Assembly: GCA_003022925.1 (NCBI GenBank) | Contig: PXRY01000100.1 | Span: forward strand, 28,111 to 84,703 | Length of the DNA stretch: 56,593 nucleotides | Source of the DNA: Halobacteriales archaeon QS_8_65_32 | GTDB taxonomy: Archaea > Halobacteriota > Halobacteria > Halobacteriales > Halococcaceae | Direction of reading: 5' to 3' | Part shown: positions 14,411 to 54,260 of the stretch, in pieces | Layout of the letters: each line of letters starts with the position of its first letter | Numbering within the stretch: the first letter of the stretch is position 1 | Program-made: the position numbers and the translations under genes | Notes under the pieces: model-generated | Told to the model about the DNA's origin: nothing | What the model saw: the letters and a program-made list of their open reading frames with translations, nothing else | Databases searched by the model: none

Positions 14411-14827
14411 ATGACGCTTCACGGCGACGTCGCGGCGACGACTCGAACGGACGGCGTACGTTTCGTCTTCGAGGTCACGAACGACGGGACGGCCGTCGAG
14501 GACATCATATTCCGGGACGCCGGGAAGGCCGACTTCGTTGTCGAACCCGAACAGGGGGACGGGGCCGGTCGTGACGGCGAAGACGGGAACGAGAGCAGCG
14601 GCGGGACTGAAGGCGAGAACGAAAGCGGCCGCACGCAGCAGTGGCGCTGGAGCGAGGGGCGGATGTTCGCCCAGGTGATCGAAACCGAGCGCCTCGATCC
14701 GGGCGAGTCAGCGACCTACGAGGGCGAGTGGTGCGCGCCCGATCCGGGAACCTACGTCGTCCGGGCGACGCTTCGCGCACACGATCACGACGCCGACGCC
14801 GAGTGTGCGTTCACGGTCGAGGAGTGA
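14411..14827 (+). CDS. BsuPI-like intracellular proteinase inhibitor domain protein
   Basis: MTLHGDVAATTRTDGVRFVFEVTNDGTAVEDIIFRDAGKADFVV...WRWSEGRMFAQVIETERLDPGESATYEGEW. ATG at 14411. Confidence 0.65.
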   Translation: MTLHGDVAATTRTDGVRFVFEVTNDGTAVEDIIFRDAGKADFVVEPEQGDGAGRDGEDGNESSGGTEGENESGRTQQWRWSEGRMFAQVIETERLDPGESATYEGEWCAPDPGTYVVRATLRAHDHDADAECAFTVEE

Positions 14828-14912
14828 GAGCGAACGGCCGAGCCGACGGTGCGACTCGCGGTGAACGGGTCCGAGCGGATCGGCCGCCGATCGACGAACG
14901 ACGAGCCGGGGG

Positions 14913-15946: not shown

Positions 15947-16408
15947 TCAGATACGACCGGAGAGGTGTTCGACAAGCCGTTCGCGGATCTCCCAGAGTAT
16001 ACCTGGTGGCTGATCGTAATCGAACTCGATCGGTTCGTATCGGTAGTCCTCGTCCGGGTTGCCGCGCCACTGAAAGTGGTCCAATGCTTCAACGTAATCG
16101 TTCTCCTGTCGATGCCATCCACAGTCGTAGCCAGCACAGTCCCGGTAGTGGAATTTGAACTGATCGGGGCTGTCGGGGTGTATCCACCAGTTTACATACA
16201 GAGCAGCTTTATCGACCCCCAGCTTATCGCTTAGAAACACGTCGCAGTCGAAGTCCGCGCGAAGCTGTTGATCGATTCCAGTCCTCGTATCGACATATCG
16301 CACCGTGTCGGCTTCCGGAAACTGCTGCAGGTTCGATCGGAGTCGGGAGAGAACGTGGCTTCTGCGGCCGCCATTCAGATGCTTATCCGAGCGGGGGTCG
16401 GGGGTCAT
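15947..16408 (-). CDS. Hypothetical protein (low-GC islet)
   Basis: 153-aa ORF in visibly lower-GC DNA. Trp/Tyr/Asp-rich, with no recognisable domain. Confidence 0.55.
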   Translation of the reverse strand: MTPDPRSDKHLNGGRRSHVLSRLRSNLQQFPEADTVRYVDTRTGIDQQLRADFDCDVFLSDKLGVDKAALYVNWWIHPDSPDQFKFHYRDCAGYDCGWHRQENDYVEALDHFQWRGNPDEDYRYEPIEFDYDQPPGILWEIRERLVEHLSGRI

Positions 16409-16423
16409 AATCCTAATGATCCT

Positions 16424-16994
16424 TCACGCCGGCGTCGAGGTGCCAGCACTACTGTGCTCCTCGTAATGCTCGTATGCTTGTTTAACGAGCGAGAGGTCGT
16501 GTCGCACTGTTTCCCACTCCGATGCGGCCTGTCTGAGTTCGGTCATTTCTTCGGAATCGGCTTCATCACTAACGGCTCGAAATCGGAGATCGTCCGGCGT
16601 CTCGACGTCGTACTGCTCCTTGACGCTCTTGTCGCGTTCTTTCATCTCCTGCGACAAGTCTAAAAAGCTCGTCTCTGCTGTATTCCTCAGTCATTCTCGC
16701 AATAGCACGAAACCGAAGATAGCCTGCGTCCGGATAGTATTTGGTCACTCCTCGCGCAGTAGTCGATCCGACGATGCTGAGTTCCTGAAGTAAGGAGAGG
16801 TGATCCCGTGCAGTTTGTTCTGCGACTCCTGCCTCCTCTGCGATCGCCTTTGCCGTCTTGGACTGATTGATGGTGAGCGCCACCGAAATAACTCGCTCAA
16901 TAGCCTTCGTTCTCTGCTTCCAAGCGTCACTTCCCTTTTTTGTTTCGTCCGAAGCCTGTTCGACTGGTTCGGTCACTCGCGGTCCATCCGGCAT
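16424..16994 (-). pseudogene. HTH-domain transcriptional regulator, frameshifted (low-GC islet)
   Basis: ORF 16569..16994 (..KTAKAIAEEAGVAEQTARDHLSLLQELSIVG..EEYSRDEL) then turns into an Arg-rich tail. The plausible continuation LDLSQEMKERDKSVKEQYDVE.. is ORF 16424..16657, in the +1 frame. The switch falls at a T5 run (gagctttttagac, about 16660-16672). Confidence 0.5.
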
Positions 16995-17095
16995 AGTACA
17001 TCTAACAATTTGATCTCTGAGCTAATAATGTTATGACCGAGTATCGGGCAGCATCGATTCAACTGAGACGGCGCGAGCTACGGAGGAGGAGACCA

Positions 17096-18031
17096 TTACC
17101 GACGCTCGGCAACCAGTTCCCGAGCCGCCCGACGAACGGCGTCGTCACTCGAGTGTTCAGGAGTCCAGCCGAGCGCGGCGAGTTTCTCGATCGAGAGGCG
17201 CATCCGGGGGACGTCGCCGGTCCATCCACGGTCGCCGCCAGTATATGTATAGTCGGGATCCGCACCTATCTCGTCGGCGACGATGTCGGCGATGGTGTCC
17301 ACCGATGTCGTCGTTTCGGTGCCGAGGTTATAGGTGTGGACCGGGCCGCCGGCCGCGTTCTCGACGACGTGGCACATCGCGTCGACACACTCCGAGACGT
17401 GCATGTAGGACTTCTCCTGGCGGCCATCGCCCAGGATTTCGAGCGTTTCGGGGTTCGCGTCGAGTTTCTCGACGAAATCGGGGACCACCCCCGCGCCGAA
17501 CCGCGAGCCGACGATGTTCGCGAAACGGAAGACCCATACCGTGAAATCGTGCGAGTGGGCGTACACCGAGAGCAGCGCTTCTTCCGCGAGTTTCGCCGCC
17601 CCGTAGATACTGATGGGTTCGAGCGGCGCGAAGTCCTCGGGGGTCGGCCGAGGCGCTTCGCCGTACACCGTCGAGGAGGACGTGAAAACCAGGTTCCGGA
17701 CGCCGACATCGGCCATCCGTTCGACGAGAGTGTGGGTGAGGTCGTGGTTCGCCTCGAACTGGCGGCGGGGTTCCTCGGAGTTGACGTACTTGTCGGCGGC
17801 CGCGAGGTGACAGACCGCATCGAGGTCGGCGGTGACGACGCTCTCGACGAACGCAGCGTCGGTGAGGTCGCCCTCGGCGAACTCGACCGATGCGGGGACC
17901 TCCTCGCGGTCGCTGTTCGAGAGATCGTCGGCGACGATCACGTCGTTGTCACGGGCGAGACGCGTCGCGAGACGCGAGCCGATGAGTCCCGCGCCGCCGG
18001 TGACGAGCACGCGCTTTCCGGCGAGTTGCAT
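17096..18031 (-). CDS. NAD-dependent epimerase/dehydratase (UDP-sugar 4-epimerase-like)
   Basis: MQLAGKRVLVTGGAGLIGSRL (Rossmann GxxGxxG) and a YGAAK catalytic motif. Confidence 0.85.
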   Translation of the reverse strand: MQLAGKRVLVTGGAGLIGSRLATRLARDNDVIVADDLSNSDREEVPASVEFAEGDLTDAAFVESVVTADLDAVCHLAAADKYVNSEEPRRQFEANHDLTHTLVERMADVGVRNLVFTSSSTVYGEAPRPTPEDFAPLEPISIYGAAKLAEEALLSVYAHSHDFTVWVFRFANIVGSRFGAGVVPDFVEKLDANPETLEILGDGRQEKSYMHVSECVDAMCHVVENAAGGPVHTYNLGTETTTSVDTIADIVADEIGADPDYTYTGGDRGWTGDVPRMRLSIEKLAALGWTPEHSSDDAVRRAARELVAERR

Positions 18032-19950: not shown

Positions 19951-22005
19951 TCACTCCGAGCGTTCGAGCGCGTCGATCCGGTCCCGGTCCTCGTCGGTGA
20001 GCGAAAAGCCGAAGACGTCGGCGTTCTCGATCACGTGTTCGGCGTCGGTGCTCGACGGGATCGGGACGACGCCGCGTTCGACGTTCCAGCGCAGAACGAC
20101 CCCGGCGGGCGTCACTCCGTGATCGGCGGCGATCTCGGCGAGAACGGGTTCGTCGAGCAGCCCGTCGGCCGACAGCGGCGAATGCGCCATCAGTCGAATC
20201 CCACGCTCCTCGCAGAACTCGACGAGGTCCTCGCGGGGGGTGTAGGGATCGCGCCCCACCTGGATGACCTGCGGAGGGATTTCGGCGACTTCGAGCAACT
20301 CGTCGAGGTCGGCGATCGAGAAGTTACTCACGCCGAGGGTCTCGACCCAGCCGTCCGCGACCAGCGACTCCATTGTCCGCCAGGTTTCCGCGAGCGTGAC
20401 GTCGGCTGCGACGGGATCGCCGTCGGCGTCGGTCGGGAACGTAAGGGCGGTCGCTTCCTCGTGAGATAGGTCGGCGAGGTCGTCGAGCGGTCCCTGGTGC
20501 GCCCAGGCGTCGGGCCAGTGGATCATATAGCAGTCGAGCGTTTCGACGCCGAGTGCCTCGCGAGAACGGTCACAGGCCGCTCGGAGGTCGGCCGGTGCGT
20601 GATTCGTGTTCCAGACCTTGCTCAATAAGAATAACGCGTCGCGATCGGGGCTTCCCGGCCGAGCCAGAATCTCGCCGATCCGAGCTTCGTTGCCGTACAG
20701 TTCGGCGCAGTCGAGCAGGCGGTAACCACAGTCGAGCGCGACTTCGATGGACTCACGCAGGTCGACGTAGGTGTCGCCGCCGCGATACCGCGAGCACCCG
20801 AAACCGATCGGCGGCATCGAAACCGTCCCGTCGTCCTTGCTCCCCGCGTTCGCCCCCGTTTCGGCTCTCGTCGTCGCGGTGGCGGGCGGCGGTAAGGCGG
20901 TCGCGGTCCCCCCGGCGTCGAGCGGCGTCGGACGCTCGACGTCCCTCGATTCGACCGCCACCGGCGCGTCCGACTCGGCACACGCCTCGATCGCCTCGAT
21001 CACCGAGACGAGGTGGGCCGCCCGCGTGCCGTTAGCGTGGTGTGGCCGCCCCACCTCGACGGCCGCCGCCATCTCGGCGATGCCGGAGGCGTACTCCAAC
21101 TTTCTCGGTGGAGCCCCCGGCGGGACGCGTCGGTATTCGCGGCCGAGACGGGCGAACTCGACCTCGCCGCCGGCACCGAACGCCGCGGCGTCGGCGAGGT
21201 GTATCGAACCACTGTCGCCGTGGATCTCCAGATCGTAGAAACTCCGGGTTCGGTGGGGGACGTACATGCTCGCGGTTAGTCGAACCGAAACGCCGTCGGC
21301 GAAGCGCAGCACACAGACGACGTGATCGGGCGTCTCCACCTCGAACGACCGGCCCTCGTGGGTGTGTTCATCGAGCAGGAGGTCGGCGTGGGCCGCTTCG
21401 ACCCGCTCTACCGGACCAAAGTAGCCGACGAGCACGGTGAGCGGGTAGACCGCTCCGTCGTGCAATGGGCCTGCCCGGAGGAACGGTTCGGGATTCGCGT
21501 TCCATTCGGTGAGCCGCCCGATGTTACAGTCGGCGTAGGCCGTCCGGACGGTCCCCAGTCGGCCCTCCTGGAAGTAGCGCCACGCGCGCTGTTGGGCATC
21601 GCCCATGAGGCTGATCGGCGCACAGCCCAGCCGGACGCCCCGCTCATCGGCGCGGTCGACGAGGTCCCACGCTTCCGCCGCGCTCGTCGCGAGCGGTTTC
21701 TCGCTGTAGACGTGTCTTTCCGCGTCGAGACACTGCCGCGTGACCCCCGCGTGGGCCTCGTGGGTCGTGAGATTGCAGACGAGCGACGCGTCGCTCCGGG
21801 CGAGCAGGCTATCGAGGTCGGCGTAGGCTGTCGCGTCCCGAGCGTCCGCGAGCCGGTCGGCGCGGGCGCGATCGAGGTCGGTGACCCCTACCAAGTCGAG
21901 CCCGTCCGCGCGGGAGATTCCCGGCGCGTAGCGATCGGCGATGGTTCCACAACCGACGATTCCGACCTTCACGTCCGAGGGGACACCGAGCGCGGACAAA
22001 AACAT
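19951..22005 (-). CDS. Gfo/Idh/MocA oxidoreductase fused to aldo/keto reductase
   Basis: N-terminal VKVGIVGCGTIADRYAP..EKPLA (Gfo/Idh/MocA), an Ala/Thr/Pro linker, and a C-terminal AKR (GFGCSRY..LDCAELYGNE..LLSKVWN..IHWP..LGVSNF..). Confidence 0.85.
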   Translation of the reverse strand: MFLSALGVPSDVKVGIVGCGTIADRYAPGISRADGLDLVGVTDLDRARADRLADARDATAYADLDSLLARSDASLVCNLTTHEAHAGVTRQCLDAERHVYSEKPLATSAAEAWDLVDRADERGVRLGCAPISLMGDAQQRAWRYFQEGRLGTVRTAYADCNIGRLTEWNANPEPFLRAGPLHDGAVYPLTVLVGYFGPVERVEAAHADLLLDEHTHEGRSFEVETPDHVVCVLRFADGVSVRLTASMYVPHRTRSFYDLEIHGDSGSIHLADAAAFGAGGEVEFARLGREYRRVPPGAPPRKLEYASGIAEMAAAVEVGRPHHANGTRAAHLVSVIEAIEACAESDAPVAVESRDVERPTPLDAGGTATALPPPATATTRAETGANAGSKDDGTVSMPPIGFGCSRYRGGDTYVDLRESIEVALDCGYRLLDCAELYGNEARIGEILARPGSPDRDALFLLSKVWNTNHAPADLRAACDRSREALGVETLDCYMIHWPDAWAHQGPLDDLADLSHEEATALTFPTDADGDPVAADVTLAETWRTMESLVADGWVETLGVSNFSIADLDELLEVAEIPPQVIQVGRDPYTPREDLVEFCEERGIRLMAHSPLSADGLLDEPVLAEIAADHGVTPAGVVLRWNVERGVVPIPSSTDAEHVIENADVFGFSLTDEDRDRIDALERSE

Positions 22006-22049
22006 CGGGGACCCGGAAACGGCAGTATTGATCTAGCGACAATGAGGAA

Positions 22050-22387
22050 AGAGCGGTACAGAGCGGTCGAAAGCCTCCGACACGCTCGACTTACGGAAGA
22101 CGGTCCTGCTCGCTCCCTGCGGTCGCTGTGCGGGCTGCGACTTCCGAACTCTCACTCGCTCACGCTGTTCGCTTGCGAGAATCGGGGGGCTCGCTGTCGT
22201 TCAAAAGACGCTTCGCATCTTTCATGAGTATTTACTCATGAAAACGGAGTTCTCGTGATGTTGTCAGAACACGAAGCGTTCTGACTGCGAGCGGGATCGA
22301 AGGTCCCGCACCGAACGAAAGACGTCGAAGGCGTCTTTCGAACCACGGCTACGCCGCCACGCAGTCGGCCCCTTTCAGTCCCGCCCC
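22050..22387 (-). repeat. Mosaic hairpin element, copy 3 (degenerate right terminus)
   Basis: Hairpins are AAAGACGCTTCGCATCTTT, CATGAGTATTTACTCATG, GTCAGAACACGAAGCGTTCTGAC, GCGGGATCGAAGGTCCCGC and GAAAGACGTCGAAGGCGTCTTTC. It ends with GGCCCCTTTCAGTCCCGCCCC, a left-terminus variant. Confidence 0.75.
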
Positions 22388-22714
22388 GTAGCGGTTGTTC
22401 GGCGGGCAATCGCGTAAGTCGACACCGCCGGCGGCGTTGACGTCTTCCGGCGAGTGAACTCGTGGGCTTCCGCTTGATTCGTGTCGCGACGGACGGCGAG
22501 CAGTGACCGCGGGCAATAACGGCAGAGCCGAACCGATCGGACACCAGCGGGCGTCCCGACGGCGTCCGTAACCCACCGCGCAGGTCGCATGGACGGAGCG
22601 GCGAAAGTGAAAGGTTCGACGGACGGAACCGGTCGGCAACCCGGGCGGAAACCGGGCGATGGATCACCCGTTACGAGCGTTTTATTCCGCCCCAGCCCCT
22701 CTTACCGGACGTCC

Positions 22715-24940: not shown

Positions 24941-25182
24941 GTCGGACAGCCTGTTCGTTGTGATAAATGCCTTGTGCAGATCAGAGGGGCGGTGTGTGGT
25001 CGAGGAATAAATGCCGATGGAAACCGTCTCGGGCGGGACTGAAACGGACCGACCGCGTGGCGGCTCTGCCGTGGCTCGAAAGAGCCCTGAAAGTATCACT
25101 GCCGACGACCATCACCCCAATGGGAAGGGAGGGGGGCTTCCGCACGCGAACGTGGGAATTGAAATATCGATATCGTGAGCAG

Positions 25183-31864: not shown

Positions 31865-31964
31865 ACGAATCTGGACCGCCCCGCAATACAGACGCAAATC
31901 ATCGGCAAGCCGTTCTCGAAAAACCGTGTTGACCTACGCATCTGCTCGTCAAACAACCGCAAGA

Positions 31965-32397
31965 GGCGGGACTGGAAGGGGCCGGGCGGTCACGGGCGCG
32001 AAGCGCCCGTGAGCTCGGGAGAGCTTCGCTCTCCCGTAGGTCGGCGAACCCCGGCGTTCACGAGAGCGAAGTGGTTCAAGAGAGCGGAACTCTCTTTTTA
32101 TGCCAAGAGATGCTTCGCGTCTCTCGTAGCACTCTCGTGAGCCAACAGGATCTCCCTGCGATCCTGTGACGACGCAAGCACGTGAGCGACTGAAAGGAGC
32201 GAACGCGCGCAGCGAGCCGCGGGTAGTCGTTCGAGAGAGCAAAGCTCTCTCGTGATGACGGGAGAACTCCGTTCTCCCGAACCACGCGGGACTCGAAGAG
32301 TCCCGCGGACCATGCGAACGGGCCTCCGGCCCGTGAGCAGAAGCCGAGCGGCCGGGGGCTTCCTAAACGGTCGCGGCAACTCTCTCGAAATAGCTCG
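31965..32397 (+). repeat. Mosaic hairpin element, copy 4 (longest)
   Basis: It starts GGCGGGACTGGAAGGGGCCGGGCGG. Hairpins are CACGGGCGCGAAGCGCCCGTG, GGGAGAGCTTCGCTCTCCC, GAGAGCGGAACTCTC, GAGATGCTTCGCGTCTC, CAGGATCTCCCTGCGATCCTG, GAGAGAGCAAAGCTCTCTC, GGGAGAACTCCGTTCTCCC, CGCGGGACTCGAAGAGTCCCGCG and GGGCCTCCGGCCC. It ends GCCGAGCGGCCGGGGGCTTCCTAAACGGTCGCGG. Confidence 0.9.
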
Positions 32398-32596
32398 ATC
32401 GAACACGACCCACTCAGCAGACAGAAGCGTTTTGTTCGTACCCGCGAAGATCGATGTAGTATGGAGACCCTTTTCCGCGGCGTCTGACGGGACTGGCCTC
32501 GCGTCCGACGCGGGTCATCGGCGTTCCGGCGGGTTTCGTCGGCTCGTTTTCCGGCTTTCGAGCGACCGCTCTCAACTACCCGACCCGCCATAACGA

Positions 32597-33901
32597 ATGC
32601 GAATACGACGACTTAGACGACTGCTCGCATCGATTACGGAGTACTACTCATCGCTCGAAGAGCTACGCGACCGCCGTCTCGCGGTGCTCGCGCTTGCGAA
32701 CCTGCTCGACATGGCATCGACGTCGATCGTCGTGCCCCTGTTGCCGATCTATGCCGAACGGTTGGGAGCTGGCCCGGTCTTTCTGGGTCTGCTCTTTACC
32801 CTGCCGACGGCGGTCAGCACCCTCTTGAGCACGCCGTTTGGCTACCTCGCCGACCGAACCTCGCGGAAACCCCCGATCGTCGCCGGCACGATCCTCGGGG
32901 GACTGTCGGTCGTCGGCGTCGGCTTCGCGGGCGACCCGACGACGCTGCTCCTCTTCAGGGGTATCGACGGCGCGGCGATGGCGATGCGTTCGGCCCCGAC
33001 GACCGCGTACCTCGGCGACATCGCCGGCGAGGACAACCGCGGGAGCGTCATGTCGGCGTATCACGCCGCCGGCATGGTCTCGATCGCTGGCGGCCCGGTG
33101 CTCGGCGGTTCGCTCGCGGCGGTCGGCTCGCTCGCAACGCCGTTTTTCGTCCTCGGCGGCGTCACCTTGATCGGCGGCGTCGTTCTCGTGGGCCTCCCCC
33201 GGAGCCCGCGGGACGAACCGACCGACGGCTCGCTCTTCGGCGAATCGTCACTCGGCGAGTCGGCACTGTCGGCGGTACGGTCGGCGATCGAAACTACCCG
33301 CGAGCGCGCTTCGCTCACGGTCGGCGCGCTCCTGGCGAGTGCCTTTCTCGCCCAGGTCGGGACGAGCGCATTGAGCCCGCTGTTCGCGCCGTTGCTCGAA
33401 GCGACCGTCGGCGGCGGGCCGGCGGTCGCGAGCCTCGCCTGGAGCGCGCTCGGCGTCGGCGTGCTCGTCTTCGTCCCCGTCGGCGGGACGCTCGCCGACC
33501 GCGCCGGCCGCAAGTCCACGCTGATCGCCGGGAAGTCGATCTGGTTCGCCGTCACAATCGGACTCGTTCTCGCGTGGACACCCCTCCTGCCGGTGGTACT
33601 GATGGCCGGTGGCGGGATCGCAAGCGCCTTTACCGGACCGGCCCAGACCGCGCTACGATACGAGTCCGCACCCGAGGGCGGCGAGGGGTCGCTGATCGGC
33701 CTGTACGGGACGGCGGCCTCGATCGGCGGGACGATCGGTCCGCTCTGTGGCGGGTTCGTCGCCGGCGCGATCGGCGCCCGAGGGGCAGTACTCGCGATCG
33801 GCGTGCTCTGGGCGGTCGACGCGCTCGTGATCGGCCTCGGCGTTCGGGATCGAACGACGACGAACCGGGTAACTGGCAGACCGGAACATGCCGAGAACTG
33901 A
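32597..33901 (+). CDS. MFS transporter
   Basis: 434 aa with about 12 TM segments and the MFS signature region GYLADRTSRKPPI. Confidence 0.85.
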   Translation: MRIRRLRRLLASITEYYSSLEELRDRRLAVLALANLLDMASTSIVVPLLPIYAERLGAGPVFLGLLFTLPTAVSTLLSTPFGYLADRTSRKPPIVAGTILGGLSVVGVGFAGDPTTLLLFRGIDGAAMAMRSAPTTAYLGDIAGEDNRGSVMSAYHAAGMVSIAGGPVLGGSLAAVGSLATPFFVLGGVTLIGGVVLVGLPRSPRDEPTDGSLFGESSLGESALSAVRSAIETTRERASLTVGALLASAFLAQVGTSALSPLFAPLLEATVGGGPAVASLAWSALGVGVLVFVPVGGTLADRAGRKSTLIAGKSIWFAVTIGLVLAWTPLLPVVLMAGGGIASAFTGPAQTALRYESAPEGGEGSLIGLYGTAASIGGTIGPLCGGFVAGAIGARGAVLAIGVLWAVDALVIGLGVRDRTTTNRVTGRPEHAEN

Positions 33902-33947
33902 GCGACAGTACGGTTACCGGTCGGCCAGCGACCGGCGACGATCGGGG

Positions 33948-35885
33948 TCACTCGGCTTCGACGGCGTCGTCGAAGCCCATCGGTTCGGGGCCTGCTCCCT
34001 CGCGGCCGAGCGCCCGGCCGAGGTACAGCGCGGAGTTGATCAGGCCGATGTGGCTAAAGGCCTGTGGGAAGTTCCCCAGGTGTGTGCCTGTCTCGGGGTC
34101 GATCTCCTCAGCGAGCAGGCCCAGGGGGTTCGCGTAGGAGATCAGGCTCTCGAAGAGGTCGTGGGCCTCTTCGATCCGCCCCGAGAGGGTCAGCGCGTCG
34201 ACGAGCCAGAACGAACAGAGCACGAACGCGCCTTCCTCGCCCTCCAGGCCGTCCTCGCCGTCGTACCGGTAGACCAGCCCGTCGTCGCTGGTCAGGCCCT
34301 CGATGGTGGCGTCGATCGTCCCCTGCACCCGCCGGTCGTCGAACGGCAAGAAGCCGACGATCGGGAGCAGTAGTCCAGCCGCATCGAGGTCGTCACCGTC
34401 GAGCGTCCGGGTGAAACTGCCCTGCTCGCCGATCGACTCGTCGAACCCGCGATCGAGTACCGTCTCCCTGATCTCCTCGCGACACGCACGCCAGTCGTCG
34501 AGCGGCGCATCGAGGTCGTTCGAGGCGGCCATCTCGATGCCACGGTCGAGGGCGGCCCAGCACATCACCTTCGAGAAGACGAACTGTTTCGGGTTACAAC
34601 GGACTTCCCAGATACCCTCGTCGGGTTCGTCCCACACCTCCCGGGCGTGCTCGATGATTTCCCGTAGCGCGGGCCACTCGCTTGCGTCGAGGTCAGCGCC
34701 ACCGTTCGTCGTCTCGTGGGCAGCGATTAGGAGTTCGCCGAAGACGTCGAGTTGGCGCTGCTCGCGGGCGGCGTTGCCGACTCGTACCGGAGTCGACCCG
34801 CAGTACCCCGAGAGGTGATCGAGCTCCCGCTCAGTCAGATCGGTCTCGCCGTGGAGGCCGTAGAGCGGCTGGAGGTCGGCCGGATCGGTGTGACAGAGCC
34901 CCTGGAACCACTCGAAGAAGGCCCGTGCCTCGGCGCGATGGCCCAGGTTCGAAAGCGCCTGGATCGTAAAGGCACCGTCGCGCAGCCAGCTGAAGCGGTA
35001 GTCCCAATTACGTTCGCCGCCGATCTCCTCGGGCAACGACGTGGTCGGCGCGGCGGCGATCGCGCCTGACCCGTCGTGGGCGAGCAACTTGAGCACTAAC
35101 CCCGAGCGGGTCGTCAGGTCGTGCCACTGACCGTCGAAGACACAGTCGTGATCGCCGCAGTCGTGCGCCCACTCGCGCCAGTACTCGACAGTGTCGTCGA
35201 GACGGCGCTCCGGGTCGACCGGACCGTCGCGGTTAGTGGATGCGTCGGCGTCGACGCCAACGTCGACTGACCCGGCGTCGGCCGCTTCGGTCTCGCGATA
35301 CTGGAGCACGAACCACGCCGTCTGGCCGGCCGAGAGCGTCGTTCTAGCGGTCGCTACCCCGTCGTCGACGGTCCACTCGACCGAGGCGGAAAGCGACAGC
35401 GCCTCGCCGTCCGCACGGGCGCGAAGGCTCCCGTCGGCCGTATCGATCGTGTCGACCGTCGTTTCCGCCCGAGCGAAGTCGAGCCGGGGGGCGAACTCGA
35501 CGCCGATCTCGACTGCCCCAGCGGTGGCTTCGGCCTTTCGGTAGATCGCCCGCCGATCGTCGCTGCCGCCGGTATCGGTGCTTCCGTCGTCAACCGGCAT
35601 GAAGTCGGTGAGTCGAAGGGTACCCGTATCGGTCTCGAAGGTCGTTTCGAGCACGTTCGTTCGGTCGGCGTACGCCTGGCTCGACTCGAAGGAGCCCGTA
35701 GGACGTATCGAAAACGAGCCGCCCCGGTCGGCGTCGAGGATGGCGGCGAATACCCCGGCGGATTCGAGATGGGGAGCCGGGAACCAGTCGATCGAGCCGT
35801 CCCGGCTCACGAGGGCACAGCTCACCCCGTCGCCGACGAGGCCGTACCCGGCGATCGGCGTGTATTCGTGCCCGCTCTCGCTCAT
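33948..35885 (-). CDS. Glycoside hydrolase family 15 (glucoamylase/trehalase-like), paralog 1
   Basis: ATG 35885: MSESGHEYTPIAGYGLVGDGVSCALVSRDGSIDWF.. with the (alpha/alpha)6 core motifs ..NWDYRFSWLRDGAF.. and ..GNFPQAFSHIGLINSA. Confidence 0.88.
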   Translation of the reverse strand: MSESGHEYTPIAGYGLVGDGVSCALVSRDGSIDWFPAPHLESAGVFAAILDADRGGSFSIRPTGSFESSQAYADRTNVLETTFETDTGTLRLTDFMPVDDGSTDTGGSDDRRAIYRKAEATAGAVEIGVEFAPRLDFARAETTVDTIDTADGSLRARADGEALSLSASVEWTVDDGVATARTTLSAGQTAWFVLQYRETEAADAGSVDVGVDADASTNRDGPVDPERRLDDTVEYWREWAHDCGDHDCVFDGQWHDLTTRSGLVLKLLAHDGSGAIAAAPTTSLPEEIGGERNWDYRFSWLRDGAFTIQALSNLGHRAEARAFFEWFQGLCHTDPADLQPLYGLHGETDLTERELDHLSGYCGSTPVRVGNAAREQRQLDVFGELLIAAHETTNGGADLDASEWPALREIIEHAREVWDEPDEGIWEVRCNPKQFVFSKVMCWAALDRGIEMAASNDLDAPLDDWRACREEIRETVLDRGFDESIGEQGSFTRTLDGDDLDAAGLLLPIVGFLPFDDRRVQGTIDATIEGLTSDDGLVYRYDGEDGLEGEEGAFVLCSFWLVDALTLSGRIEEAHDLFESLISYANPLGLLAEEIDPETGTHLGNFPQAFSHIGLINSALYLGRALGREGAGPEPMGFDDAVEAE

Positions 35886-36122
35886 CGATTCGCCCCGCTG
35901 AGGTCGGTCGGGACGGCCGAGGCGCTCGGGGCGACCGGGGCCCACGCCGGAAGTGGGTCGGAAGTCGTCATCGATCCACGGAGGGGCTGAACGGGCGAAA
36001 AGCCTCCGGCGGTCGTGTGCCGTCGGTGCCGACGCGTCGGCGGCGATAGACGGTATGGGCAACGGACGGTGCGAGCGCGACGAATCGGCGTCGGACGTCG
36101 CGGCGAGTCGGCACCGGAGAAC

Positions 36123-38108
36123 TCAATCGGAGCGGCCCGACTCGCCGTCGGGGTCGCTCCCGTCGGTACCGATCGGCTCGACGGCGTAGTCGGTGTCCAC
36201 GCTGGGACCCGCGGGCTGTTCCACGTACCCGGATTCGAGCTGTGCCTCGCGGGCTTCGCTCAACAACAGCGCCGAGTTGATCAGGCCGATGTGGCTGAAT
36301 GCCTGCGGGAAGTTGCCCCGGCCTTCGCCGGTCTCGGGGTCGACCTCCTCCGCGAGCAACCCCAACGGACTCGCGAACGACACGACCGAGTCGAACAGTT
36401 CGGTCGCTTCCTCGATGCGGCCCGAGAGGGCGAGCGCGTCGACGAGCCAGAACGAACAGAGCACGAAGGGGTTGTCCTCGCCAGCGACGCCGTCAGGAGC
36501 GTCGTAGCGATAGACCAGCCCGTCGTCGGTCGCGAGCCGCGAGCGAACCGCGTCGATCGTCCCCTGGATCCGCCGGTCGTCGACGGACAAGAAGCCGACG
36601 ACCGGCAACAACAAGGCGGTGGCGTCGACCGCGGTGTCGGTCTCAAAGGTTCGGGTGAAACTGCCGTGGTCGCCGATCGCCGGATTGAACCCCGCTTCGA
36701 GCACCGTTTCCTTGATCTCCGCGCGGGTCTCGCGCCAAGCCCGTGTCGGGGCGTCGAAGCCCTGCTCGCGAGCCATTTCGATGCCACGGTCGAGGGCGGC
36801 CCAGCACATCACCTTCGAGAAGACGAACTGTCGCGGCTCGCTGCGGACCTCCCAGATGCTGCTTCCCGGCAGGTTCCAGACCTCGCGGGCGCGCTCGATC
36901 ACCCGGCGGACCGTTGCCCACGTTTCGGCTGAGAGGCCCTCGCCGCGCCGGGAGGTCTCGTAGACCGCGAGGACGAGTTCGCCGTAGACGTCGAGTTGGC
37001 GCTGGTCGCGGGCGGCGTTGCCGATCCTAACAGGGGCCGACCCGCGATAGCCCTCGAACCCGTCGAGGATCTCCTCGCCGACATCGGTTTCGCCGCGTAG
37101 GCCGTATAACGGGCGGTAGAGCGGCTGGTCCAAGCTCTCCGGATCGCCTTCAGCCAGGCCGAGACACCAGTCGAAGTAGCGTCTCGCTGCGTCGGTGTTG
37201 CCGAGGCGGTAGAGCGCCTGGACCGAAAAGGCGGCGTCGCGTAGCCAACTGAAGCGGTAATCCCAGTTGCGCACCCCGCCGATCTCCTCGGGTAGCGAGG
37301 TCGTCGGCGCGGCGGCGATCGCGCCGGTCCCGTAGTGGGTGAGCAGCTTGAGCACCAACCCCGAGCGCACTACGAGGTCGTACCGGGGACTGTCGAAAAC
37401 ACACTGGGAGGGGTGGGTACACCGACGCGCCCACGCGCGCCAGTAGCGGATCGTCCCCGCCAGGGCGGCCTCGTGCTCGGCGGGCGAGAGCGGATCGTGC
37501 GCGCCGTACTGGAGGGAAACGACCAGGTTCTCGCCCGCCGAAAGCGTGTGGGCCGCGTGCGCGGTATGATCCCGGGTCCAGCGGTCGCCGCCGTCGCCAT
37601 CGTCACCGTCGTCGATCGAGAAATCGAGCGGTGCCGACGCCGACAGGAAGAGGCGCTCGCCGTCCGCGCGGGCGACGACGCCGGCAGAAGTCGGTTCGAT
37701 CCCCGTCGCCGCCCGAGCGTAGTCGAACCGAGGGGCGAAGTCGACGGCGATGCCGACCGCGCCTTTCGTGCACTCGACCCGTCGGTAGATCGCTCGTGTC
37801 GGGAGTTCGGGCGTCCGTTCGTTATCCGTGACGGGCATGAAGTCCGTGAGCGTTATCCGGCCGGTCGGCGTCTCGAATTCGGTCTCTAAGACGTTCGTGC
37901 GGGAAACGTACGACTGCTCGCTCGCGTACTCGCCGGCCGGCCGAAGGGCGAAGTGTCCCCCGCGGTCGGTATCGAGGATCGCCGCGAAGACGCTCGGGGA
38001 GGCCAACTCCGGTACCGGAAACCAGTCGATCGAGCCGTCGCTGCCGACGAGCGAACACGTCTCTACGTTCCCGAGGAGGCCGTACTCCGCGAGCGGCGTA
38101 TATTCCAT
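36123..38108 (-). CDS. Glycoside hydrolase family 15, paralog 2
   Basis: ATG 38108: MEYTPLAEYGLLGNVETCSLVGSDGSIDWF.. with NWDYRFSWLRDAAF and GNFPQAFSHIGLINSA. Tandem with paralog 1. Confidence 0.88.
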   Translation of the reverse strand: MEYTPLAEYGLLGNVETCSLVGSDGSIDWFPVPELASPSVFAAILDTDRGGHFALRPAGEYASEQSYVSRTNVLETEFETPTGRITLTDFMPVTDNERTPELPTRAIYRRVECTKGAVGIAVDFAPRFDYARAATGIEPTSAGVVARADGERLFLSASAPLDFSIDDGDDGDGGDRWTRDHTAHAAHTLSAGENLVVSLQYGAHDPLSPAEHEAALAGTIRYWRAWARRCTHPSQCVFDSPRYDLVVRSGLVLKLLTHYGTGAIAAAPTTSLPEEIGGVRNWDYRFSWLRDAAFSVQALYRLGNTDAARRYFDWCLGLAEGDPESLDQPLYRPLYGLRGETDVGEEILDGFEGYRGSAPVRIGNAARDQRQLDVYGELVLAVYETSRRGEGLSAETWATVRRVIERAREVWNLPGSSIWEVRSEPRQFVFSKVMCWAALDRGIEMAREQGFDAPTRAWRETRAEIKETVLEAGFNPAIGDHGSFTRTFETDTAVDATALLLPVVGFLSVDDRRIQGTIDAVRSRLATDDGLVYRYDAPDGVAGEDNPFVLCSFWLVDALALSGRIEEATELFDSVVSFASPLGLLAEEVDPETGEGRGNFPQAFSHIGLINSALLLSEAREAQLESGYVEQPAGPSVDTDYAVEPIGTDGSDPDGESGRSD

Positions 38109-38354
38109 CTGGAGGGCTTCAGTAATAATGCGTACCTTCACTACATAAGGTTGTTGGCCGGTGTGAAAGTGGCACGTACGCCTAACCGTCAGTAGCCGGC
38201 GACTACCGGCGGTCGTATCGGCTGGGATCCGACGAGTATGAGTCCAGCGGTCAACGATTCGGTGTAACGGTCGTGTCGAGTGGCGGGGGCGCGACAAGGC
38301 AGAGCGAGCGGCAGCGGTACTAATCGGCCGGTGAGCGTTGCCACAGGCTGTACC

Positions 38355-38510
38355 GGGTGGGACTGGAAGCTCCCGGACGGTCGGCGAAGGCGGACGACGC
38401 GAGCACCGTAGGTGAGCGACGAAAGGGAACGAACCGAGGAGCGCAGCGAGGCCTCCGAGTTGATTCGTCCGGGGGCTTCCGAAACGATCCCAGCAGCTCG
38501 TTTCCCGAAG
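38355..38510 (+). repeat. Mosaic hairpin element, copy 5 (minimal: termini only)
   Basis: GGGTGGGACTGGAAGCTCCCGG...GTGAGCGACGAAAGGGAACGAACCGAGGAGCGCAGCGAGGCC..CCGGGGGCTTCCGAAACGATCCC. There are no internal hairpin cassettes. Confidence 0.7.
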
Positions 38511-38578
38511 ATTACGAACCGAGCACTACCCGGCCGACAGCGGAAACGGTTTTGCGCGCCGGGCGAGAAGGGGAAGCG

Positions 38579-39369: not shown

Positions 39370-39657
39370 ATGAACGACGATCGAACGGCGACGCGACGAC
39401 AGACGCTTCGTACTGCCGGACTGCTGGCGGTAGCAGGACTTGCCGGCTGTGCGGCTCCCAGCGGTGGCGGCGAAGGTGAGGGTGGAGGCGAAGGGGGCGG
39501 TGAAGGTGGCGGTGGCGAAGGCGGTGGGGGGGAAGGCGAGGGCGGCGGAGAAGGTGGTGAAGGCGGCGGTGGCGAAGGAGAGGGCGGTGAAGGTGGCGGC
39601 GAGGGTAGGGGCGGCGGATACGGCGGTGGGGAGGGAGAAGGCGGCGAGGGGGGCTGA
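39370..39657 (+). CDS. Tat-signal lipoprotein with Gly/Glu low-complexity mature region
   Basis: MNDDRTATRRQTLRTAGLLAVAGLAGC (twin-arginine motif plus lipobox), then about 65 residues made almost only of G and E. Confidence 0.6.
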   Translation: MNDDRTATRRQTLRTAGLLAVAGLAGCAAPSGGGEGEGGGEGGGEGGGGEGGGGEGEGGGEGGEGGGGEGEGGEGGGEGRGGGYGGGEGEGGEGG

Positions 39658-40903: not shown

Positions 40904-41147
40904 ATCGGGATAACCTCAACCTCAACCTCATAGGGAGTTCGTTTGCAACCCGGTTCATCGGTCACCGTCTCGGCGTCGTCAACGTCGCTTCAATCCCACA
41001 AAGAGTTCGTCTGTAACTCGGCACGGGGGTGATCGGCGATGACTGAACAAGCTTCGATCCCACAAGGAGGTCGTCCGTAACGCAGACAGAGATGTCTGGT
41101 TTCCGCATCGGATGCAGCTTCGATCCCACAAAGAGTTCGTCTGTAAC
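40847..41147 (-). CRISPR. Orphan CRISPR remnant: three good and two degenerate repeats, haloarchaeal type I-B-like
   Basis: The minus-strand repeat is GTTACAGACGAACTCTTTGTGGGATTGAAGC, at 40987-41017, 41051-41081 (variant) and 41117-41147. Degenerate copies lie at 40919-40949 (22/31) and 40847-40877 (3' half only). Spacers are 33-41 nt. Confidence 0.8.
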
Positions 41148-41327
41148 GATGCCAGATCCGCGAGGGACAGAGTCCGTATCCGTCGCTAGGTACATAGTGT
41201 TTCCGTCGACCTCCGATACCCAGCTCACCCCCGGGGAGTCGATGGAAACCAGTGGCTCGGACGGCCGAGGGTGATCGGACTCGCGTCCGGCGAGGATACA
41301 AATACCGGGATCGGAGCAAAACGTCTC

Positions 41328-42722: not shown

Positions 42723-42850
42723 AGTTCGAGAAGGGGCCAGGACCCGAAAGCGATTGCGATGATCGAAGTCCGAAACGTGCGAGCCCACTGCTGCGATGAT
42801 TGGATACACCGGGTGAACGGACACGCCCTGGCGAAGGTTGGGTTAGTTTA

Positions 42851-43197
42851 GCAGCTTTCAGGAAGATCCGCTGAGACCGTTTTAGAAGCCCCCGACCGCT
42901 CGGCTTCTGCTCATGGGCCGGAGGCCCGTTCGCATGGTCCGCGGGGCTCTTCGAGTCCCGCGTGGTTCGGGAGGACGGAGTTCTCCCGTCATCACGAGAG
43001 AGCTTTGCTCTCTCGAACGACTACCCGCGGCTCGCTGTCGTTCAAAAGGCCGCGCGAGGCGCGGCCTTTTGTGATGACGAAAGGCGCTTCGCGCTTTTCG
43101 TTATGCCGAGAGACGCGAAGCGTCTCTCGTAGCACTCTCCCGAGCTAACGGGCGCTTCGCGCCCGTGACCGCCCGGCCCCTTCCAGTCCCACCCGAA
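42851..43197 (-). repeat. Mosaic hairpin element, copy 6 (complete)
   Basis: The + strand begins GCAGCTTTCAGGAAGATCCGCTGAGACCGTTTTAGAAGCCCCCG (right terminus, reverse complement), holds 8 hairpins, and ends CGCCCGGCCCCTTCCAGTCCCACCCGAACC (left terminus, reverse complement). Confidence 0.9.
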
Positions 43198-43288
43198 CCG
43201 GTTCCGTCGGTTTTTATTGCCTAACCAGACACCGCCGTGGCGAACCGATACCTCATGGCGACGGCGACCGTTCGACGGGACAGCGACG

Positions 43289-46267: not shown

Positions 46268-47617
46268 ATGACGCCACGGACCCTCCAGTACTCCGATCTC
46301 GAAAACGCCTACGACCACCCCGAGCGGATCGGTCGGCTGGCCGGCCTTCTGAACCGCTTACGCGGAGCCGACACCCTCGTCGTCGGTTCGGGCGACGACC
46401 TCGCGCCGGGGGTGTGCTCGCTCGCGACCCGGGGTCGGTGTGCGCTTCCCTTCTTCCGTGCCGTTCGCCCCGACATCGAAACCTTCGGCAACCACGACTT
46501 CGACTACGGCCTCGATCGCACGCTCGAAATCGTCCGCGAGTCGCCCCAAGAGTGGATCAGCGCCAACGTCGCCGTCGAGGGGACGCGCTTCGGGGCCGCT
46601 GAGGGCGTTCGCCCCGCCACCGTCCGCGAGGTCGACGGGCGGCGCGTCGGGTTCGTCGGCGTCACCGACCCCGCGACGACCGACATGACCCCAGTCGCGG
46701 GCGACCTCGACATCGACGATCCGATCGCGGCGATCGCCCGGCGCTGTGACGTCGACGCCGTCCTCGGCGGGCACGTCCACGACGAGCGGATCGCGACGAT
46801 CGACGGGACCGTCTGTACGCGGCTGAACGCGAACGGCCGCCGGATCTGCGAAATCGATCTCGACGCGGGCGAAGCGCGATTCCACGAGACTGCCGAGGGG
46901 CCGCTCGACGAGGAGGTACAGGCGGCCTACGAGGCGACCTATGAGGAAACGGGTCTGGGGGAGGTCGTCGCCGTTATCGACGAGCCGATTGCCCGGTCGC
47001 GGGCGCTGCGCTTGGGCGGGGAGTGTCGAGCGGGGAACTTCGTCGCGAACGCTTACCGTTGGGCGGCCGGCGCGGACTGTGGGCTGCACGACGCAGGCGG
47101 GATGCGCGACGGGCCGGCGCTCGCAGGCGCGGTCAGGGTCGCCGATCTCGTGAGCCTCGTCCCCTTCGACAAGCGGGTCGTTTGCTGTGAGATCACGGGG
47201 CGGGAGTTACGCGAAGTCCTCGCCGAGGGATACCGGGCGTCCCGCGGGAGCGGCGAGCCGAACTGGTACGCCCACGTGAGCGGGCTTCGGGTCGTCCACG
47301 ATACGAGTAACCGAACCGTCGTCGAGTGCTGGATCGACGGCGACGACGAGGGCGACGATGGAGAGAACGGCGACAAGGGCGACGACGGTAGTGAGAACGA
47401 CGGTATCGAGGACGATAGCGGAGAACTCCTCGACCCCGACCGGACGTACACGCTCGCGACGAACGACTACCTGCTCGCGACGCACTACGAGGTCTCGACG
47501 TTCACGCCCGCCCACCGATCGCGGGATCTCGACGTTCAATGGGAGGTACTCGCCGCTTACGCCCGCGAGCGCGGCATCGATCCCCGGATCGACGGCCGAA
47601 TCGTCCTCCGCGAGTGA
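46268..47617 (+). CDS. Metallophosphatase/5'-nucleotidase, paralog 2 (lacks the SHxG block, carries an acidic insertion)
   Basis: LQYSDLENAYD..VGSGDDLAPG..FGNHDFDY..GGHVHDE. The region equivalent to RVLGLSHCGDDDDLAAAIEADAI of paralog 1 is absent. It has the extra tract DGDDEGDDGENGDKGDDGSENDGIEDD. Confidence 0.8.
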   Translation: MTPRTLQYSDLENAYDHPERIGRLAGLLNRLRGADTLVVGSGDDLAPGVCSLATRGRCALPFFRAVRPDIETFGNHDFDYGLDRTLEIVRESPQEWISANVAVEGTRFGAAEGVRPATVREVDGRRVGFVGVTDPATTDMTPVAGDLDIDDPIAAIARRCDVDAVLGGHVHDERIATIDGTVCTRLNANGRRICEIDLDAGEARFHETAEGPLDEEVQAAYEATYEETGLGEVVAVIDEPIARSRALRLGGECRAGNFVANAYRWAAGADCGLHDAGGMRDGPALAGAVRVADLVSLVPFDKRVVCCEITGRELREVLAEGYRASRGSGEPNWYAHVSGLRVVHDTSNRTVVECWIDGDDEGDDGENGDKGDDGSENDGIEDDSGELLDPDRTYTLATNDYLLATHYEVSTFTPAHRSRDLDVQWEVLAAYARERGIDPRIDGRIVLRE

Positions 47618-51228: not shown

Positions 51229-51384
51229 CGGTCGAAGGGAGGAAACGCTCCGATACGGACCCGCTACGGCGATGCAAACGACCGGGAGCCGACACGGATA
51301 GGGGTCGAAAGTGACGATCGGCCTCGTCGCTCAGGCACGAGGGGCGGTGTTTAGTTGCGCGATGAAGACCGACGAGAACGGTTC

Positions 51385-51765
51385 GGGTGGGACCGGAAGG
51401 TGCCGACCGCTCGGCGTTCTTGTAAGCGAGTGGAACGAGCGAACGAGAGCTCGAAGGACGAGCGAAGCAAGTCCTTCGTAGAACCCCAGCGTTCTTGCGA
51501 GCGAGAGCAGGGAAGAACTTTGCTCCGACCGCGTTCGCGAGAACGAAGTGGTTCGAGAGAGCGGAGCTCTCTTGTCATGCCGAGAGACGCGAAGCGTCTC
51601 TCGTAGTACTCTCGTGAGCCAACAGGATCGCGGTGCGATCCTGTGATGACACAAGCACGTGAGCGATGAACGAACTAAAGGAGCGAGCGCGCGCAGCGAG
51701 CCGCAGGAGCCGAGCGCGTCGGGGGCTTTCAAAACGGTCTCGCCAGCTCTTCTCCTGAAAGTCGC
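51385..51765 (+). repeat. Mosaic hairpin element, copy 7
   Basis: It starts GGGTGGGACCGGAAGGTGCCG. Hairpins include GAAGGACGAGCGAAGCAAGTCCTTC, GAGAGAGCGGAGCTCTCTT, GAGAGACGCGAAGCGTCTCTC and CAGGATCGCGGTGCGATCCTG. The right arm is GTGAGCGATGAACGAACTAAAGGAGCGAGCGCGCGCAGCGAGCCGCAGGAGCCGAGCGCGTCGGGGGCTTTCAAAACGGTCTCG..CTGAAAGTCGC. Confidence 0.85.
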
Positions 51766-51794
51766 AAAAACGGCCAGCACGGAACAGCTAAGGG

Positions 51795-53701: not shown

Positions 53702-54046
53702 AGCGGTCGCTCACCCTCGCTCGGAACGATCGTCGTCCGCTTCTCGCGCTCCCCTCGTTCATTAGGGTCTCCGCTCGCATTCGCCGGTGACCGACGGGAC
53801 CCGCTGTGAACATTCGGTAGAGCGAACGCCGCGGTCACGGCGCGGGTACCCGGTTCCGCTCAGGTCGCCGGGTCGCTTCGGCCGCGCGTTCGGGCGATGG
53901 ACGAGTGCCTGTTCGAGCGGTTGCGCGCGGTCGACGGCGTGAAGTCAGCGCCCTGGCGGCCGCCCAACCGATGGGAACCCGGACGGAGCGATCGCGTAGA
54001 TGCGGCCGAGCGATAAGCGAGCGACGAACGCGACGAAAACCGGTCC

Positions 54047-54216
54047 GGGTGGGACTGGAAGGGGTCGGGCGCGCGGCGGCTTCGCCGTAGTTCGAAAGAC
54101 ACCCTCGGCGTCTTTCGTTCAGTGCGGGACCGAAGGTCCCGCTCGCAGTCAGAACGCTTCGCGTTCTGACCACATTCACGAGAACGGAGTTCTCGTCTCA
54201 GCAACCCTCTCAGAAG
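54047..54216 (+). repeat. Mosaic hairpin element, copy 8 (lacks canonical right terminus; abuts tRNA-Ser)
   Basis: It starts GGGTGGGACTGGAAGGGGTCGGGCGCG. Hairpins are GAAAGACACCCTCGGCGTCTTTC, GCGGGACCGAAGGTCCCGC, GTCAGAACGCTTCGCGTTCTGAC and GAGAACGGAGTTCTC. It ends 45 nt from the tRNA-Ser 3' end. Confidence 0.8.
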
Positions 54217-54260
54217 GAGTTAATAAACACTACCAGTTCACGAACACGAAAACTCGGAAG

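Follow-up and report, generated by a model that had tools for sequence, protein, structure and literature searches.

A nested family of non-coding repeats with a conserved hairpin core in Halobacteria

Repeat copies in the window

The window analysed here is a stretch of 56,593 nt from contig PXRY01000100.1 of Halobacteriales archaeon QS_8_65_32, and coordinates are positions in this window unless another record is named. Its genes are interspersed with nine copies, E1 to E9, of a non-coding repeat of about 190-490 bp, none of which carries a transposase gene. The repeat has three nested levels: an outer shell with terminal inverted repeats (TIRs), a core hairpin unit of about 115 nt inside the shell, and double-hairpin cassettes inserted in the unit. 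The core unit is not confined to this genome. It recurs across Halobacteria, and what an earlier sequence-only reading of the window had described as the conserved termini of the repeat is the base of this hairpin unit. The copies, given from TIR to TIR, and the parts of the focal copy are listed below.

1-219, plus strand: E1, right part only, cut by the window edge (repeat finder, blastn)
5800-6189, minus strand: E2, between a DUF460 gene and a class I tRNA synthetase gene
22021-22429, minus strand: E3, a divergent copy; 16 nt separate its right end from the ATG of ORF 19951-22005
24988-~25180, plus strand: E9, short and degenerate, right end uncertain
31922-32410, plus strand: E4, sister of E6 (168 nt, 95% identity), carries cassettes
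38311-38530, plus strand: E5, a full element about 46 nt upstream of the DUF7095 gene start
38355-38480, plus strand: core unit in E5, the only uninterrupted ~115-nt unit within the window
42836-43236, minus strand: E6, the focal copy, 401 bp with both inverted repeats; ends GGCGGTGTCTGGTTAGGC (left) and GCTAAACTAACCCAACC (right)
43237-43244, minus strand: left flanking direct repeat of E6, TTCGCCAC
42828-42835, minus strand: right flanking direct repeat of E6, TTCGCCAG
43170-43194, minus strand: 5' motif of the core unit in E6, GGGTGGGACTGGAAGGGGCCGGGCG, an exact match to the search pattern
42963-43020, minus strand: nested 58-nt double-hairpin cassette in E6, TCGTTCGAGAGAGC..GCTCTCTCGTGATGACGGGAGAAC..CCTCCCGAACCA
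42884-42893, minus strand: 3' motif of the core unit in E6, GGGGGCTTCT, which pairs with GGAAG of the 5' motif
51343-51775, plus strand: E7, the most variable element among strains (5.8% variable sites)
54005-54234, plus strand: E8, with a strain-specific 111-nt right-arm deletion at about 54196; right inverted repeat TTAATAAACACTACC

The sequence-only reading had recorded eight copies. All eight are homologous repeats, as shown by long inverted and direct matches and by blastn of the copies against the window. The blastn search also returned a match at 25031-25083, within the ninth copy (E9) that had been overlooked, and a weak piece at 52760. The longest arms linking copies in the repeat finder are 168 nt at 95% identity. 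Alignment of the flanks showed that the ends had been drawn 40-60 nt short on both sides: conserved sequence extends about 43 nt upstream of the earlier starts (GCGGTGT...ACCG..TTC) and about 45-50 nt downstream of the earlier ends. With TIR-to-TIR extents the coverage, previously put at about 2.4 kb or roughly 4% of the window, becomes about 3.0 kb or 5.3%. A 25-mer that had been said to open every copy is real, with four matches at three or fewer mismatches against none in 100 shuffles, but only four of the seven copies that keep a 5' end match it at that threshold. The part in common is GGGYGGGACYGRAAS.

The description of the copies as intergenic, ORF-free and without a transposase nearby stands. 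Their neighbours are Pfam-supported genes or genes called on near-identical contigs. No transposase family appeared among 30 window open reading frames (ORFs) scanned against Pfam, or in the Pfam families listed for genes called on near-identical contigs covering 22.6-56.6 kb. A conserved reading frame within the elements is incompatible with the insertions, deletions (indels) and loop flips that separate the strains. The gap between the right inverted repeat of E3 and the ATG of ORF 19951-22005 spans 22006-22021; if that start is real, the promoter would lie within the element, but the annotated start may differ. Folded as single-stranded DNA, E6 has a predicted energy of -112.4 kcal/mol, with z = -7.2 relative to 100 shuffles.

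Three nested levels

The outer ends of the repeat are imperfect TIRs. Loci from several metagenome-assembled genomes (MAGs) show GGYRGTGTTCA(G/A)AT at both ends with at most one mismatch, and the cleaner ends from Halobacteriales MAGs read GG(C/T)(A/G)GTGTTCA(G/A)ATA(A/C)GCG ... CTTATCTGAACAC(T)ACC. TIRs in the window are less regular, as in E2 (GGCGGTGTTCAAG versus GTAGTGTTCGATG). The earlier statement that the ends are not inverted repeats is true of the shortened ends but not of these outer ones. Inspection of the flanks for target-site duplications, which the same reading had suggested, revealed 8-bp direct repeats at a constant offset outside the TIRs. Among 10 elements, those at L067 (CGTCCGGC) and L045 (GCGTCACG) are perfect, and those at L004 and L047 agree at seven of eight positions. 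The two flanks of E6 likewise agree at 7/8 positions, at the offsets seen for the 8-bp duplications in relatives. Mismatched pairings served as a control, and 8/8 agreement arose in 2 of 90 with any offset allowed. Derivatives that have lost the interior, in part or completely, retain the same ends (L090; L067 4370-4495). With its inverted repeats, its 8-bp duplication and its deletion derivatives, this outer shell acts like a MITE (miniature inverted-repeat transposable element). The gene families that recur next to units are housekeeping genes or apparent shadow ORFs, none of them transposase-like, and a BLAST search of plasmids with a 48-nt left-end query, a repeat too short for BLAST, returned nothing haloarchaeal.

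The core runs 5'-GGGYGGGACUGAAAGGGG...GGGGGCUUUC-3', and its interior around the tip is GCAAGCACCGCAG-(variable tip)-GAGGAGCGCAGCGAG. From the 5' motif to the first GGGGGCTTTC the distance is mostly 105-125 nt. The window copies are stretched versions of this unit, except the one at 38355-38480, which has a predicted RNA fold of -68.4 kcal/mol (z = -3.0). A covariance model built on the core, an approach proposed in the sequence-only reading, scores 87.8 bits (E = 4.5e-14) at this position, matches pieces of every other full copy, and finds units beyond the window across Halobacteria. A pattern scan of one genome per species gave at least 97 stretches, about 86 of them from Halobacteriales of many genera, among them Salinarchaeum, Haloarcula, Halovenus, Halorussus, Halosimplex, Natronomonas, Halobaculum, Halolamina, Halomarina and Halopiger. 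In 11 bacterial pattern matches the rest of the unit was absent. In total, 110 units were located within 634 kb of haloarchaeal loci. The consensus unit matched 90 plasmid records by blastn, in a tally that names ten genera and 21 more first words. These records include Haloferax volcanii DS2 pHV4 (three places, one unit at 14804-14908), Halobacterium salinarum R1 PHS2 (unit at 72013-72119), Hfx. mediterranei, Halorubrum and Natrinema, and the annotation under nearly every listed match is "none". Copy number is uneven, with nine per 57 kb in the window versus three per 636 kb on pHV4. Carriage by viruses was considered and rejected: phage records gave no unit match, and IMG/VR gave one at chance level.

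From 40 MAFFT-aligned units RNAalifold predicted a single long, imperfect hairpin in which 20 of 30 pairs show compensatory changes. For 110 units the alignment was fitted to the covariance model, which leaves the MAFFT result the more independent; in the fitted alignment, 94.4% of cells are paired and 23 of the 30 pairs show double changes (574 cells). None of 500 shuffles scored as high, and sliding the 3' partners lowered pairing to 31-48%. What stays constant is the GGGY tail at the 5' end, the GGAC/GUYC helix, GAAAG/CUUUC, an internal loop rich in G and, with their fixed unpaired A residues, the blocks GCAAGCAC and GCGCAGCGAG. The columns corresponding to the 5' motif of E6 are invariant or nearly so across the 40 units, and the pairing with the 3' motif joins columns 11-15 to columns 128-132 of the RNAalifold alignment. 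In the pair columns of the 110 units, G·T combinations number 107 and A·C combinations 31. Removing the richest column leaves 78 versus 30, and the MAFFT pair table gives about 39 versus 13. Because G·T exceeds A·C, the strand as written is the strand whose fold is kept.

Spacer context was assigned with a codon-position frame caller that had been checked on Pfam-supported window genes. Units lie in 24 divergent and 6 convergent spacers, and in co-directional spacers 17 are sense and 18 antisense, so that no orientation preference relative to genes is seen. A bias of 65:11 in orientation to downstream genes was discarded, since the caller had confused sense with codon-aligned antisense; the corrected caller gives no bias.

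The third level consists of the cassettes. The short GC-rich hairpins and recurring linkers of the sequence-only reading are present, and the hairpin cassettes differ in number and order between copies, much like the mosaics formed by repetitive extragenic palindromic (REP) sequences and bacterial interspersed mosaic elements (BIMEs). That picture was incomplete: each cassette is a mini-element in its own right, nested in the repeat, with distinct ends and sites of insertion, and the linkers belong to it. A cassette measures 57-62 nt and has the form T(G/C)GTTCG-(hairpin 1)-GTCATCAC-(hairpin 2)-CGAAC(G/C)A. Its ends are inverted over 7-8 nt (TGGTTCG and CGAACGA), and its stems differ in sequence yet remain complementary. 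The framework recurs at other loci and in other genera. Inside the unit, insertions occur at GAGGA(G/C)CG^CAGCGAG (L069, L094, L014, L040) and at GCACCG^CAG (L001, L072, window E2). They are found in either orientation, the left flank always ends SCG, there is no target duplication, and removal in silico restores the unit sequence. The 58-nt cassette of E6 is precisely absent from the ~99%-identical contig L108, where the empty site reads GGGTAG^CGCGGG without duplication, which is direct evidence for the cassette as a discrete unit. No TnpA or TnpB gene was seen among the ORFs neighbouring cassettes or units. By analogy, the cassettes appear to behave as smaller, duplication-free palindromic elements, like SMR-A and the terminal-only palindrome-associated transposable elements (PATEs) of Haloquadratum.

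Across these genomes the core is the constant part and its carriers differ. In Haloarcula, Halovenus and Salinarchaeum the units form mostly inverted doublets, 17 head-to-head, 3 tail-to-tail and 0 tandem, with spacers of 16-28 nt or, in Salinarchaeum, about 118 nt. Partners in a doublet are no more alike than random units (0.707 versus 0.704), and no doublets occur within the window. Another subfamily has doubled GGTRGCCGGCAC modules within the same inverted repeats. On plasmids, a non-coding block of up to ~290 nt has a variant of the unit as its 3' end and often adjoins genes for HalOD1-domain and winged-helix proteins. Querying with this block plus flanking sequence gave matches in 149 haloarchaeal plasmid records, and three aligned examples have in common the part from ATGGTCGGTCGCGAGCGACGCGGAGG onward. 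Examples are L099 2820-3113, from Hbt. salinarum R1 PHS2 (71832-72125), and L098 2396-2605, from H. volcanii pHV4. The pHV4 block lies about 280 nt from the IS110-like transposase gene ISHvo9, which is more likely an insertion sequence (IS) sitting beside a repeat.

One gene neighbourhood can be compared between genera. In Halovenus (L025 2553-3037), a TtuA-like gene and a DUF7095 gene diverge directly from each other across a head-to-head doublet of units. The corresponding two genes of the window (32597-38297) are kept apart by an MFS gene and two tandem GH15 paralogues, with E4 at one edge and E5 at the other. The distance to the DUF7095 start is about 96 nt for the E5 unit and about 100 nt for the Halovenus unit.

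Variation among near-identical strains

Exact-protein look-up brought up eleven metagenome contigs with about 99% identity to the window. They allowed E4-E9 to be compared with one to seven other contigs each; look-ups for the genes flanking E2 and E3 gave no match. E6 occupies the same site in L103-L106 and, in part, in L107 and L108, contigs that break inside the element. Variation takes the form of changes to internal pieces of the elements. In loop inversions (CTTCG/CGAAG, TCC/GGA, GAA/TTC, CTC/GAG), identical stems enclose a loop in one strain and its reverse complement in another. A scan requiring exact context detected them in 5 of 17 assessable hairpins, and more are apparent by eye where an extra substitution is present. 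E4 differs from its counterpart in L100 by three loop inversions and a 60-nt indel, extra in L100 and lying between GCGTTC repeats. E8 is without its right arm because of the 111-nt deletion in the window strain, and both the 60-nt and the 111-nt indels fall between short repeats. Variable sites make up 4.8% of E6, E7 and E8 versus 2.1% outside, a 2.4-fold higher density (Fisher p = 1e-6), and E5 in L100 has two substitutions in the otherwise invariant 5' motif. The site density and the motif changes are what would be expected for unconstrained individual copies.

Minute hairpin inversions occur in chloroplast DNA. Loop inversion together with one-step double changes is the signature of intramolecular template switching at quasi-palindromes, a process that generates both (PMC8794818). 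The repeats share with that kind of mutation the exchange of a loop for its exact reverse complement between identical stems and the one-step compensatory changes; they differ in that here the inversions are polymorphic within a population, across many hairpins of a single repeat family. Such frequent flips among strains only ~1% diverged would imply a high rate.

Several contig differences are of other kinds. An apparent deletion of E7 in L108 proved to be a scaffold gap of Ns. L107 (1-289) diverges completely inside E6 into a different cassette sequence up to the contig end, which reflects either a different allele or a repeat-induced misassembly. Colinearity with L106-L108 breaks at 46722-46736, inside tandem 5'-nucleotidase genes, where gene calls differ between contigs.

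Elsewhere in the window, the tandem GH15/TREH_N glycoside hydrolase paralogues at 33948-36062 and 36123-38297 share about 75% DNA identity. Just downstream of the DUF7095 gene, 39454-39654 holds a G-rich GGnGGnGAAGG-like repeat with start-to-start spacings of 12, 15 or 18 nt. Four direct repeats of ~32 nt at 64-68-nt spacing occupy 40922-41151, with two weak minus-strand matches to the Rfam family CRISPR-DR24 (30.8 and 25.1 bits against a gathering score of 35); the region looks like a small, degenerate, orphan CRISPR-like array. At 16001-18000, around an NAD-dependent epimerase/dehydratase gene (17096-18031, minus strand), G+C falls to 59% against ~66%, possibly marking acquired glycosylation genes.

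Origin and maintenance of the family

We think it probable, on balance, that these repeats are a selfish, non-autonomous family of MITE-like and REP-like character in three nested layers, whose hairpin is a cis-acting structure for propagation and which is now reshaped mainly by template switching. The shell would have been inserted by cut-and-paste through a DDE-type transposase supplied in trans, as the TIRs and the 8-bp duplication suggest, while the folded single strand would be recognised by the family's propagation machinery. The hairpin would persist since copies in which it is broken do not multiply, and template-switch repair of both arms would contribute. Covariation would then stem from selection among replicating lineages and from this repair, and not from a host RNA function. 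Cassettes would insert without duplication after ...SCG, with a preference for GCACCG^CAG and GGAGCG^CAGCGAG, and so produce the mosaic. Whole elements would be fixed in this species, and present change would come from hairpin-mediated replication errors, namely loop inversions, deletions between short repeats, and gain or loss of cassettes. A selfish family fits because the copies are dispensable, decaying, and placed regardless of gene orientation.

A number of observations weigh against this interpretation. No autonomous IS with these TIRs was found among 97 loci. Window copies other than E6 show degenerate TIRs and no recognisable duplication, and they look old. Sister strains, which the sequence-only reading had proposed to compare for presence or absence of copies, show no whole-element polymorphism: E4-E9 occupy the same site in every covering contig, and transposition in this species is for that reason historical, not demonstrated. 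The head-to-head doublets and the plasmid block that carry the unit in other genera are without these TIRs; shell and core may be separately mobilised. The pair counts from the fitted alignment of 110 units lean towards structure. Finally, a 20-nt motif more than 90% conserved class-wide, the constant loops and the strand-specific G·T excess exceed the needs of an ordinary MITE, and would fit an RNA or single-stranded DNA site used by the host.

Those last features can be accommodated in other ways. The ~115-nt unit could be moved as folded single-stranded DNA by an HUH/Y1-type enzyme, in analogy to REP doublets forming hairpins (REPINs) with their REP-associated tyrosine transposases (RAYTs), or to palindrome-associated elements derived from IS200/IS605. 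The TIR shell would then be a secondary carrier, and the cassettes minimal two-palindrome derivatives. We give this reading a minor share of the probability. It would explain why the fold signal is strand-specific (107 versus 31), why unpaired nucleotides are conserved inside a covarying hairpin, why adjacent units are nearly always inverted doublets (17/3/0), and why cassettes enter in both orientations after a short fixed sequence without duplication; Haloquadratum, moreover, has PATEs down to 52 bp and SMR-A that insert into palindromes without duplication (PMC3119063). The recurrent ORF families beside units are mostly housekeeping, however, and none is transposase-like; no Y1 or HUH gene turned up, with no search aimed at one. 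The unit is also three to five times the length of a REP, and the window has no doublets but elements whose TIRs and 8-bp duplication are not products of HUH transposition. That the unit is instead a functional structured RNA (a small RNA gene, cis stabiliser, terminator or insulator) spread by transposons, with covariation reflecting selection for the RNA fold at each locus, we judge unlikely. Class-wide conservation, compensatory changes, the G·U excess on one strand, a stable rod-like fold, the enrichment of divergent, promoter-bearing spacers (24 versus 6 convergent) and the similar distance of the unit upstream of the DUF7095 gene in the window and in Halovenus all agree with such a role. 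It is opposed by the lack of gene-orientation preference (17 versus 18) and of any consistent promoter-like sequence upstream of units by eye, by a copy number that depends on lineage (nine per 57 kb versus three per 636 kb), and by the large insertions, deletions and invariant-motif mutations that copies tolerate between near-identical strains. In a table of H. volcanii transcription starts, the motifs are absent from the 70-nt upstream strings among the entries listed. No Rfam family matches: with Rfam 15, only two tRNAs reach gathering scores in the window, and nothing credible appears at E <= 5 for the window or E <= 1 for seven loci. Template switching, furthermore, makes compensatory changes without RNA selection (PMC8794818).

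Lower still we rank the idea, which strikes us as very improbable, that the unit is a host DNA site, for instance one bound or cleaved by a chromatin, repair, recombination or replication protein, whose many copies would serve to maintain the genomes of polyploid haloarchaea. The class-wide sequence blocks and dispersed intergenic placement are in keeping with it, as are the ~290-nt non-coding block containing the unit, conserved on many of the 149 plasmid records, and the loop inversions, which imply hairpin behaviour in vivo. Yet copy number is very uneven between genera, decay, truncation and invasion of copies are tolerated, an asymmetry of G·T against A·C is unexpected for a duplex binding site, and we know of no candidate protein. 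A broader proposal, which we hold as doubtful, is that the unit is a conserved single-stranded substrate (DNA or RNA) of a dedicated class-wide protein, an archaeal counterpart of REPIN-RAYT, or else a new class-wide structured RNA, with the 58-nt cassettes as its own parasites and a high rate of hairpin flip-flop.

Certain specific identities were rejected. A three-way cassette junction resembles the hammerhead, but its core is GUGAUGA...GAAC and not CUGAUGA...GAAA, and it has no Rfam match. An origin from the right end (omega-RNA) of IS605/TnpB elements is contradicted by the 110 units, which have no TnpB-like or other recurrent transposase ORF beside them. An IS110 bridge RNA, suggested by ISHvo9 beside the pHV4 unit, is set aside, as that unit lies on the opposite strand and nearly all units are without such a gene. 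Spacers within doublets have no consistent AT-rich box that would indicate their own promoter or a bidirectional TATA element. Replication-origin recognition box (ORB) repeats and integron attC arrays are ruled out by copy number, spacing and housekeeping neighbours.

Among known systems, the haloarchaeal MITEs, namely MITEHsal of Halobacterium and the MITEs of Haloquadratum (PMC7002104, PMC3119063), are likewise small, non-coding, multi-copy, intergenic elements with TIRs and a 7-8-bp duplication, and are targeted by other mobile elements. The repeats described here differ in having a class-wide, covarying 115-nt hairpin as interior in place of unrelated filler, and in that no cognate IS came to light. 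MITEs described from Halobacterium are ~400 bp and AT-rich, with 47.7-48.7% G+C (PMC7002104), and no sequence relation to the present family was noted. With REP, BIME and REPIN-RAYT systems the family shares abundant extragenic palindromes, mosaics, inverted doublets (in other genera) and long vertical persistence. It differs in a unit of 105-125 nt instead of 20-40 nt, in the tag GGGYGGGAC instead of GTAG/CGTC, in being archaeal, in the inverted repeats and duplication of the window copies, and in that no RAYT was identified, with no search aimed at one. IS110-family elements lie in REPs (PMC8450116). PATE and SMR-A of Haloquadratum walsbyi (Dyall-Smith et al. 2011, PMC3119063) are also transposase-free palindromic repeats for which nesting of element in element is the rule. 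SMR-A is ~110 bp, with prominent inverted ends and no duplication, and sits inside palindromes of other mobile elements, targeting IS605-type ends; terminal-only PATEs are as short as 52 bp (PMC3119063). The cassettes share with PATEs and other IS200/IS605 derivatives the two hairpins, the absence of duplication and a fixed short flank (SCG). In a comparison by description only, they differ from SMR-A and PATE in their length of 57-62 nt and in their host element, and Haloquadratum is AT-rich.

The sequence-only reading had been unable to assign the repeats to a described haloarchaeal MITE or non-coding RNA, and a search of the literature for the motif string, haloarchaeal MITEs and archaeal REP or RAYT systems found no paper that prints the motif or describes such a family. 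A 2024 census identified Halobacteriales MAGs as the archaeal genomes richest in MITEs, with 251 in an unclassified Haloarculaceae and a Halovenus also among them (PMC11602168), and those MITEs may belong to the same family. The kind of element is known (MITE, REP-like, nested palindromes). Judged against Rfam 15 and the literature searched, the novelty lies in a structured core shared by the whole class, in nesting at three levels, in the doublet rule and in the frequent flip-flop of loops.

Should the family prove as common as the scans indicate, it would be a major and so far unannotated part of haloarchaeal intergenic DNA, including that of the model organisms Haloferax volcanii and Halobacterium salinarum. 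The covariance model is ready for masking and annotating such regions. The elements also explain breaks in metagenome contigs, several of which end inside them. RNA-style covariation may stem from DNA template switching, which calls for caution in the discovery of non-coding RNA in GC-rich genomes. The family offers a natural system with three nested levels of non-coding mobile DNA, and its loop inversions in populations could gauge the formation of hairpins or cruciforms in vivo in polyploid archaea.

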